Assembly (NCBI GenBank): GCA_951406725.2
Contig: OX597835.1
Coordinates: 10,416,001 to 10,480,000, forward strand
Origin: Octopus vulgaris
Taxonomy: Eukaryota
Direction of reading: 5' to 3'
Length of the DNA stretch: 64,000 nucleotides
The notes below the pieces were generated by a model. That model saw only the letters and a program-made list of their open reading frames with translations, had not been told where the DNA came from and searched no databases. Made by a program: the position numbers and the translations under genes. This document shows, piece by piece, positions 26,601 through 29,600 of the stretch (within the stretch, counting starts at the first letter, position 1; each line of letters begins with the position of its first letter).

Positions 26601-29600
26601 TCCAGTGCGCGAACGATGCTGTCAATTCATCACCTTTCAACACTTGGAATAAGCTAGATGAAAGTCTGAAAGCACCGTCCGAATGTGGTCAATGCCAATG
26701 ACCCCTGACTGGCCTCCCATGCCAACCGCATGTAAAAAGCACCATCTGAACGTGGTTGAAGCAAGTGACCCCTGACTGGCTCCCGTGCTGGTGGCACGTA
26801 AGAAGCACTTAGTATACCCTTGGAATAGTTGGCGTTAGGAAGGGCATCCAGCTGTAGAAACCATGCCAGTTCAGATTGGAACCCGGTGCAGCCTGCTGGG
26901 TTGCCAGTCCTCAGTCAAACCGTCCAACCCATGCCAGCATGGAAAGCAGATGTTAAACGATGATGATGATGATAACAACAACAAAGGGAGCAAGCTAGCA
27001 GAATCCTTAGCACGCAGGGTAAAATGCTTAGCGACATTTTGTCAATCTCTACATTCTGTGTTCAAGTTTTGCTGAGGTCAATTTTATCTTTCATCTTTTC
27101 GGGGTCGATAATATAAGTACTAGTTGAACAATGGGGGCAGGGGTGTCAATGTAATCGTCTTGCGCCCCCCCCCCCCCCCCGAAATTGCTGGCCTTGTGCC
27201 TAAATGCGAAACCATTATCATAAGAACAATAATCTTTTCTATTATAGGTACAAGGCCTGAAATTTTGTGGGAATGGGGTTAGTGGATTACATCAGCCCCC
27301 AGTGCTCAGCTGGTACTTATTTCAATGACCCTGAAAGGATAAAAAAACAAAGCTGACCTCAGCAGGAATTGAACTCACAACATGAAAACAAATGAAATGC
27401 TGCTGAGCATTTTGTCAGGCATGCTAACGATTCTGCCAGCTTACCACCCTAAGCATTAATAATAATAATAATAACAATAATAACAACAGTAATGATAAAT
27501 TGTTGGCATTTCTTACCAGCAGGCAACTCTCTAAAGCGAAGATATTCCATAGACCGGGTTGTAACCAATGGTTTTTGGGGATACAGCAGTCCATGGGCAA
27601 GAGTGTCCATTCGGACGTGAAAGTTGGTGATGTAAACACCCATAGCTTGTTTTCCCATAGCGCTTTGGTAGGTATTACGGGGAGACTGCACAAAGGAAAA
27701 AACACAAAGATATGAACTTTTATGCACTCACAGATATATATATATATAAATGAATGAAAGAATGGAGTCAAACGAAGATGTTAACAAAATTCCTTTACTC
27801 TCGACATATGTTTCGAAGACAGCATATTTTTATTCAGAAGGAATAAAAGGTACATTATGCAATCTTCTCATCGGGAAAGATAAGGAGCCTCTCTCAACCA
27901 CAAGACGAACAAAAATTTCGATATATATATATATATATATACAGAGTGACCTAAAAAAACAAAAACAAAACAGAACCCATGAAAATTTTATGAAATCCTA
28001 CAAAGGTCCAGCAACTTTCTTGATAGATCGAGATGAACTGGTTCCAGCAAGATGGGGGCCACCCCCCATGCATCAAATGCCCCGCTAGCCTGGCTGAGAG
28101 AGTGATTTCAGGAGAGAGTGATCAGCAGGAAGTGTGACATTGAGGGGGCACTGCATTTACTGGACTTGAATCTCCAACATCACTTGACAACTGAAGCTGG
28201 TGTGTTTACGTCTCTGTAACTTAGTGGTTCGGCAAAAAGAGAGCAATAGAATAAGTACTAGGCTTACAAAGAATAAGCCCTGGGGTCGATTTGCTCGACT
28301 AAAGGTGGTGCTCCAGCATGGCTGCAGTCAAATGACTGAAACAAGTAAAAGAGTATCGTGTCTTCTGCTCTCCACCCTCCTAATTATAATATGTTCCTAC
28401 CATCATACTTTTAACTCCTCTTTACACCTCAGTTTAAGTTCAGCTGATACCACCACTGTCTCAATCATAAGGATTCTTTTGTCTTGTGAGTGACAAGGCA
28501 AACCCACTAGTGCTGGTGCCACAGTAAAAAGATTCCAAGATATATAAGAGCCGGAAGCTAATGAAATATTTATAATTTATGTGACTTGACAAGGGGAAAA
28601 ATAAAAAAAACTTCTGGCATAAATGGTATTAGCTATATTGCTATTACAGGGATATTTAAAATTTTGAAACATACATACTCTTTTACTTGTTTCAGTCATT
28701 TGACTGCGGCCATGCTGGAGCACCGCCTTTAGTCGAGCAAATCGACCCCGGGACTTATTCTTTGTAAGCCCAGTACTTATTCTATCGATCTCTTTTTGCC
28801 GAACCGCTAAGTGACGGGGACGTAAACACACCAGCATCGGTTGTCAAGCAATGCTAGGGGGACAAACACAGACACACACACACATATATATATATATATA
28901 TATATATATATATATATATATATATATATATATATACGACAGGCTTCTTTCAGTTTCCGTCTACCAAATCCACTCACAAGGCATTGGTCGGCCCGGGGCT
29001 ATAGCAGAAGACAACTTTCCCAAGATGCCATGCAGTGGGACTGAACCCGGAATCATGAGGTTGGTTAGCAAGCTACTTACCACACAGCCACTCACACATA
29101 AAAAAAAAAAAAAAACTCACCTGGTTGTGATCTGGAAACGGAATAATGGAGGCACAAACTCCAAGCACCATCGCAGGATGAATTTCACAGTGAGTATATG
29201 TAGAACAGTAGGCCATACCTTTCTCTTGGAGATCATCTGGGGTCATAGCCAACATTACTGTTTCCTCTTCAAGAGGATCAATATATTCCACAACCCCACT
29301 AGCTACGAGATCTTGCCAACTAAGAAAACAAAGAAGATTTTATTAATTACATCTAATTAGTCAGGTATGAACTCAATTAATTAGCAACAATTACATATAG
29401 AAGAACAGAAGAATAGGTAAACATCAGTTTTAGAACATGATAACTAAACAATAATAATTAATACGTGAACAAAGTCGTTAGTTTTAAGAACAAGAATCTA
29501 ATTTATTAACATTTGTTTTTCTTTTTGTCAGTTCGTAACAACAATATCTATGTTATTGTAATTTTAATTAAATTACTTAATCAATGGTAAGCAGTTCATC

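Follow-up and report, generated by a model that had tools for sequence, protein, structure and literature searches.

A hammerhead ribozyme fold in an RPB2 intron is one copy of an abundant repeat, probably with a private core mutation and of likely Penelope-like origin

Introduction

Close to the acceptor of an RPB2 intron, the sense strand can be folded into a hammerhead ribozyme whose core begins with CC rather than the canonical CU. Is this fold a working intronic ribozyme, a member of a ribozyme lineage with a variant core, or the remnant of a mobile element? An earlier reading made from the letters alone (the sequence-only reading) left the choice between a self-cleaving RNA and its fossil, and hinted at a lineage variant.

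The hammerheads of metazoan Penelope-like elements (PLEs) are described by Cervera and de la Pena (2014, PMC4209133) as type I ribozymes with a long helix II, a G10.1-C11.1 pair and a palindromic helix III, and an extra residue separating position 9 from 10.1 is given there as a common trait. According to the same work and a review (PMC6765202), these ribozymes occur mostly as dispersed single motifs tied to truncated elements, and cleavage is absent in the monomer and low in the dimer. PLEs leave 5'-truncated copies, and in several clades these are directed to microsatellites, in Naiads to (TA)n (Craig et al. 2021, PMC8557442); a (TA)n bias like that of Naiads is proposed in that paper for Neptune. 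The exchange of U for C at core position 4 (U4C) is reported to lower hammerhead activity considerably in vitro, yet to leave a viroid infectious (PMC3088659).

Here, we describe a computational analysis of this locus within the window, which is the whole 64-kb stretch of DNA analysed. We present evidence that the fold belongs to a high-copy repeat family with a canonical core, and that the odd core letter is likely a private decay mutation of one copy.

Results

The host gene is encoded on the minus strand, where Pfam Rpb2 domains 1-7 were recovered from 13 of 93 ORFs (Table 1). Contig 1 of the public run X1 (depth 193.9) covers 27514-27688 with 0 differing letters and joins the exons that flank the host intron; the intron is spliced out in this RNA-like run, X1 being RNA by guess only. 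The placement in an RPB2 intron near the acceptor is confirmed. Thirteen coding exons were located upstream, and the number 14 given to the intron by the sequence-only reading requires one further short 5' exon, which was not located. Runs X2 and X5 also hold contigs of diverged RPB2 sequence at 27605-27688 (depth 140-425); the one in X2 crosses the intron position without an intron and may come from another organism in the sample, from RNA or from a retrocopy. Elsewhere in the window, a 67-bp minisatellite (family D9) occupies 17784-18537 inside an RPB2 intron, a tandem duplication of about 476 bp comprises 2188-2620 and 2664-3100, and the plus strand at 50401-50661 weakly matches the DDE_3 transposase domain, with an E of 4.6e-5 that does not reach the Pfam cut-off, and is likely a Tc1/mariner remnant.

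Table 1. Coordinates and basis of the features discussed; all positions are those of the window.
Feature	Position	Strand	Basis or remark
Type I hammerhead fold	27791..27886	-	descriptor match, folding, pair check
Stem I, 5' arm	27875..27886	-	10/12 pairs with 27791-27802
Stem I, 3' arm	27791..27802	-	pairing check
Core CCGAUGA, C4 at 27873	27868..27874	-	family has U at 27873
Stem II: 12-bp lower helix (11 pairs) and apical 8-bp hairpin	27815..27867	-	
GAAA, palindromic stem III ACAUAUGU (dimer-type), GUC triplet	27803..27814	-	self-duplex -7.0 kcal/mol
Repeat copy of 172 bp from a high-copy family, likely a 5'-truncated 3' end or pLTR piece of a Penelope-like element	27749..27920	-	contig depth; origin judged indirectly
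(TA)n tract, RNA-strand 3' end of element	27734..27748	.	loose contig ends at 27734
(TA)n tract, RNA-strand 5' end of element	27921..27941	.	sequence
Host RPB2 intron (intron 14 of the sequence-only reading), 1435 nt	27686..29120	-	Pfam; spliced join in X1 contig 1
Downstream RPB2 exon (start of Rpb2 domain 6)	27514..27685	-	PF00562, E = 3.8e-17
Second sense-strand hammerhead fold, canonical core, RPB2 intron 8	35862-35974	-	35 nt after RPB2 donor
Second copy of intron-8 fold, stem III palindrome broken	35049-35161	-	
141-bp near-perfect palindrome in or next to (TA)n	21-161		arms resemble type I hammerhead

Read on the minus strand from 27886 to 27791, three helices surround the core and the open ends lie in stem I, which is the topology of a type I hammerhead. 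The base of stem II is the G10.1-C11.1 pair, and its lower helix has a single U.U mismatch (27861/27821); the apical hairpin pairs 27848-27841 with 27835-27828 over 8 bp. G27867 pairs directly after A9, leaving no extra residue to separate position 9 from 10.1. GAAA (27814-27811) is followed by the 8-nt palindrome ACAUAUGU (27811-27804) and by C17 at 27803. With respect to the core CUGANGA...GAAA...UH, this copy departs at position 4 only, and the family has the core in full. The sense-strand fold proposed earlier, with 10 of 12 pairs in stem I, a long G-C-closed stem II bearing an apical hairpin and a palindromic stem III, was therefore recovered in every part. So was the distance from the predicted cut (27803/27802) to the 3' splice site, put at ~117 nt, for which the intron boundaries 29120-27686 give 117 nt.

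Two places in the window match a strict hammerhead descriptor, whereas resampled windows average 0.01 matches (a single match among 100 resamples), and the minus-strand fold has z = -3.3, none of 200 shuffles being equally stable; we therefore do not regard the hammerhead as a chance product. The plus strand folds about equally well (z = -2.8), yet without the core. The description of the fold as well-folded holds only in part: stems I and II do form in the minimum-energy structure, where the core, however, is paired with the stem III side, and hammerhead-compatible structures make up 3.7% of the ensemble of the 96-mer, or 1.0% with the monomer stem III, and 0.6% or 0.15% when flanks are included. 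Rfam returned no match at the gathering score across the 64 kb and, at E up to 10 on 27600-28100, no hammerhead family but three chance matches (E 7-8.5), a miss that may be due to the long stem II. That miss, and the readiness with which AT-rich DNA folds, would speak for a chance fold or an assembly error. Against it stand the two strict matches, a looser core-box pattern that found 27 metagenome loci and formed both stems in none of them, the canonical core of the family and a near-identical contig in an independent run; we count this explanation as already refuted and give it almost no weight.

Family data came from contigs of four of the 24 listed public runs (X1, X2, X5 and X18, one per organism label), aligned on 27480-28160 at 80% likeness. 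The hammerhead lies in a 172-bp segment between two (TA)n tracts, as the sequence-only reading had described for a segment of ~170 bp. In X5 the flank has a depth of ~50, and 27779-27801 reaches 1.14 million, an excess of up to about 20,000-fold. Depth is far above the flank over 27749-27916, cover is zero over 27917-27962, and contigs of the flank break at the (TA)n tract. All four runs show a family depth thousands of times that of the flank together with diverse flanks, which indirectly identifies a high-copy dispersed repeat. Summed contig depth is not copy number, and it is only as a reading of this depth that the family can be put at thousands to tens of thousands of copies. Among the blastn and nhmmer matches listed there was no further copy of 27749-27920 in the window, and a family scan of metagenome contigs, viral contigs and prokaryote genomes gave 0 matches. 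Next to the element, on its RNA-strand 5' side, a second, moderately repeated family starts (27980-28160; X5 depth 1,000-7,800 against 50). The host's repeats as a whole resemble those of an octopus.

Insertion beside (TA)n is a trait of the family, since loose contig ends at 27734 run on into (TA)n and then into dissimilar flanks in 18 (X2), 33 (X5) and 17 (X18) contigs; the proposal that this copy is a separate insertion within a (TA)n tract is supported. Towards the RNA 5' side the X5 depth drops from 1.14 million to 7,655 at 27894-27916, as expected from 5' truncation, to which divergence below the 80% cut-off may add. From the (TA)n on both sides, the 3'-end contigs in (TA)n and this gradient, we infer a 5'-truncated element with a microsatellite target. 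Literature searches, which extended to hammerheads in octopus, found no family that combines a long stem II in two parts with insertion at (TA)n, so that the present family adds a lineage to a known class.

The family has U at 27873 in all four runs and organism labels, by 298.1 of 302.1 in summed depth (98.7%; 8 contigs), 18349.6 of 18397.5 (99.7%; 42), 178965.9 of 179174.5 (99.9%; 66) and 5361.6 of 5390.7 (99.5%; 25). We conclude that C4 is this copy's own change and not, as had been suggested, a variant of the lineage. It is most likely a real allele of the locus rather than an assembly slip, because the non-U remainder in X1 (4.0) equals the depth (3.99) of a contig that agrees with the copy at 111 of 112 nt. 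Other near-fixed differences from the family occur at 27770 (99.5-100%) and 27836 (79-99%), and 27848 and 27852 differ as well (91-98% in three runs, but 21% and 47% in X1). The copy thus carries at least five private changes, U4C included; under drift, the probability that one of five strikes the 15 core nucleotides of 172 is 0.37.

GAAA, the palindrome, the cut triplet and the remainder of the core lie within 27801-27818 and 27853-27872, and neither interval contains any of the 20 variant rows listed within the element; 39 further rows lie beyond this listing. Three variants keep a pair (27800, U-G to U-A; 27822, G-C to G-U; 27831, U-A to U-G) and five break one if the partner is as in the intronic copy (27793, 27798, 27819, 27826 and 27848). 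The contig tables are unphased and phase is not recoverable from them, so covariation of the stems is suggested rather than proven. The apical part of stem II differs among subfamilies in these tables. A loose-end consensus at 27826 in X2 (3 contigs) represents a subfamily in which the lower stem II retains its full 12 bp but is capped by another, short loop. This subfamily is the better paired at two places, having C-G instead of U-G at 27862/27820 and a pair at 27861/27821 in place of the U.U of the intronic copy. A UUCG tetraloop considered for the family's apical hairpin was dropped, since one C would have to bulge out, and a loop of 3 nt is the better fit.

Two other places in the window resemble hammerheads. 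The fold in intron 8 occurs twice because the end of an exon and the start of the intron (about 36000-35811) are duplicated at 35186-34998 with 95% likeness; the two copies lie on the same transcript at a distance of 813 nt and might conceivably form a dimer. An interpretation of this fold as a box C/D snoRNA was dropped for want of a terminal stem by eye and of an Rfam match. The statement that the two introns' folds share no obvious sequence was too strong: a stem II arm is common to both at 15 of 16 nt, in register (blastn E = 0.36), a match reached in 1 of 2000 shuffles in what was a single post-hoc comparison. On this likeness a distant common origin is possible, with the elements themselves entering as separate insertions.

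In each arm of the palindrome at 21-161, GAAA is accompanied by a stem II that is short and a stem III that is nearly palindromic. The CC-starting core suspected there is borne out for one arm as far as its first letters go, but in either arm G5 and G8 are replaced by A, and the 21-161 element has no intact core in the window. Collection scans for this family gave 0 matches, and none of the blastn or nhmmer matches listed joins it to 27749-27920. It might contain a true C4 variant, since the core of one arm equals a C4-type core after two CpG decays. The shared CC start is what could recommend a C4 core common to the whole lineage of the intronic element; given a different sequence family at 21-161 without G5 and G8, and U4 throughout the four runs, such a variant is scarcely credible, and for the family it counts as already refuted barring C4 subfamilies less than 80% alike that fall outside the alignment.

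Discussion

These results make it quite probable that the fold is one copy of an abundant hammerhead repeat, with a C4 that is likely private, and that it is a likely near-silent, 5'-truncated leftover of a Penelope-like element. The sequence-only reading had already proposed a Penelope-like remnant, and the architecture and (TA)n setting support this as the likeliest origin: helix III is palindromic, and a G10.1-C11.1 pair opens a long helix II, as in PLE pLTR hammerheads. By analogy, membership among the PLEs is likely and the element would work as their hammerheads do. Several points speak against this assignment: none of the 168 window ORFs of at least 75 aa encodes a reverse transcriptase or a GIY-YIG endonuclease, A9 is followed by no additional base, the helices exceed the published lengths, and Naiads, one of the (TA)n-biased clades, have no hammerheads.

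By what is described for PLE hammerheads (PMC4209133), two hammerheads in the tandem pseudo-LTR transcripts of the parent would come together at the ACAUAUGU palindrome, form a double hammerhead and be cut after GUC. As may be reasoned from Craig et al. (PMC8557442), the 3' end would next be copied, usually in truncated form, into (TA)n sites by the parent's reverse transcriptase and GIY-YIG endonuclease. The copy at 27749-27920 would then have been inserted singly into the intron in sense orientation, and at least five private changes, one of them U4C, would have accumulated in it. Cutting of RPB2 pre-mRNA is predicted to be rare or absent, since a cis partner is lacking, the core is damaged and few structures of the ensemble are compatible with a hammerhead. 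A solitary copy whose stem III is of the dimer type and whose core is so changed is likely near-silent by analogy, although activity of U4C in a viroid leaves this silence unproven. Of the two descriptions offered earlier, the fossil therefore stands, and a working ribozyme is unlikely in view of the single copy, the dimer-type stem III, the damaged core and weak folding in context.

The element may have had another parent. Non-LTR retrozymes are tandem hammerhead repeats of 150-450 bp that give small circular RNAs, and 27749-27920 could be an equally decayed, dispersed monomer of such a family. Retrozymes have been proposed to derive from PLEs, and this alternative changes the parent only. 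A length of 172 bp, low GC, a type I hammerhead and no ORF would all suit a retrozyme, as would the presence of part of the element in 11 of the 24 runs in the list (RNA by guess, and not included on account of their species label; X1 alone among them was aligned). Such families are known in molluscs (PMC7229834), and monomers are reported as dispersed, with about 43% of Xenopus copies intronic (10.64898/2026.07.22.740005). But the locus holds a single copy and no tandem, the 2 joints listed include no head-to-tail joint within the element, family 3' ends continue into (TA)n rather than another unit, depth is skewed to the 3' half, and the helix sizes are unlike the canonical 6/4-bp retrozyme hammerhead; we regard a retrozyme as unlikely. 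Selection at the locus may be invoked in two opposite senses. U4C might have risen by silencing a hammerhead that lay sense in an intron of an essential gene, a form of host disarming, and an intact member of the family, pairing through the palindrome, might cleave the copy in trans even so, which is conceivable because U4C spares the GUC side; we find this improbable.

Conversely, the copy might be a working ribozyme kept or tuned at the locus, with U4C damping the cut and allowing some regulation of RPB2 splicing. Its sense orientation 117 nt from the acceptor, the intact stems I and II, the matching contig in another sample (X1) and the second sense-strand fold in intron 8 are compatible with this, and natural U4C hammerheads can stay active in vivo (PMC3088659). 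A single copy with a dimer-type stem III is a poor candidate, however, as PLE monomers are described as uncleaved and dimers as little cleaved (PMC4209133); slow hammerhead cutting within introns leaves splicing unblocked, as summarised in PMC2995048; and the hammerhead share of the ensemble below 4%, together with five private changes consistent with drift and intact stems such as young copies are expected to have, makes a slowed ribozyme decidedly improbable.

The locus itself has little significance: thousands of dispersed, decaying PLE-type hammerheads have been described from animal genomes, and the weakening effect of U4C is on record. It would have more if sense-intronic copies were selectively disarmed or cut in trans. 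Were disarming real, the thousands of family copies would constitute a natural mutational scan in which core changes are enriched in sense-intronic copies; trans cutting would tie the turnover of RPB2 pre-mRNA to transcription of the repeat.

Among known systems, the closest likeness is to PLE pLTR hammerheads of the palindromic-helix-III variant (PMC4209133), which share the type I topology, the long helix II with G10.1-C11.1, a helix III suited to dimers, and existence as thousands of dispersed, heterogeneous single copies. Set against the hammerheads described there, the fold at 27791-27886 is longer both in helix I, with 10/12 bp, and in helix II, with 12 bp and an apical hairpin besides, carries U4C, lacks the extra nucleotide after position 9 and has no PLE ORF in the window. 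The endonuclease-bearing Neptune and Naiad PLEs resemble it in short, 3'-end-biased copies in (TA)n with no discernible target-site duplication; the (TA)n-biased Naiads, as characterised in PMC8557442, are without hammerheads, unlike the 27749-27920 element. Non-LTR retrozymes (PMC7229834; 10.64898/2026.07.22.740005) likewise are short non-coding repeats with a type I hammerhead and dispersed, often intronic monomers, from which this element differs in not standing in tandem units at its locus and in its non-canonical helix sizes. Finally, the natural U4C hammerhead of a viroid, as cited in Perreault et al. (2011, PMC3088659), has a core change identical to that at 27873; the viroid, a replicating RNA in which tertiary contacts are made, tolerates the change, whereas here it is private to one genomic copy.
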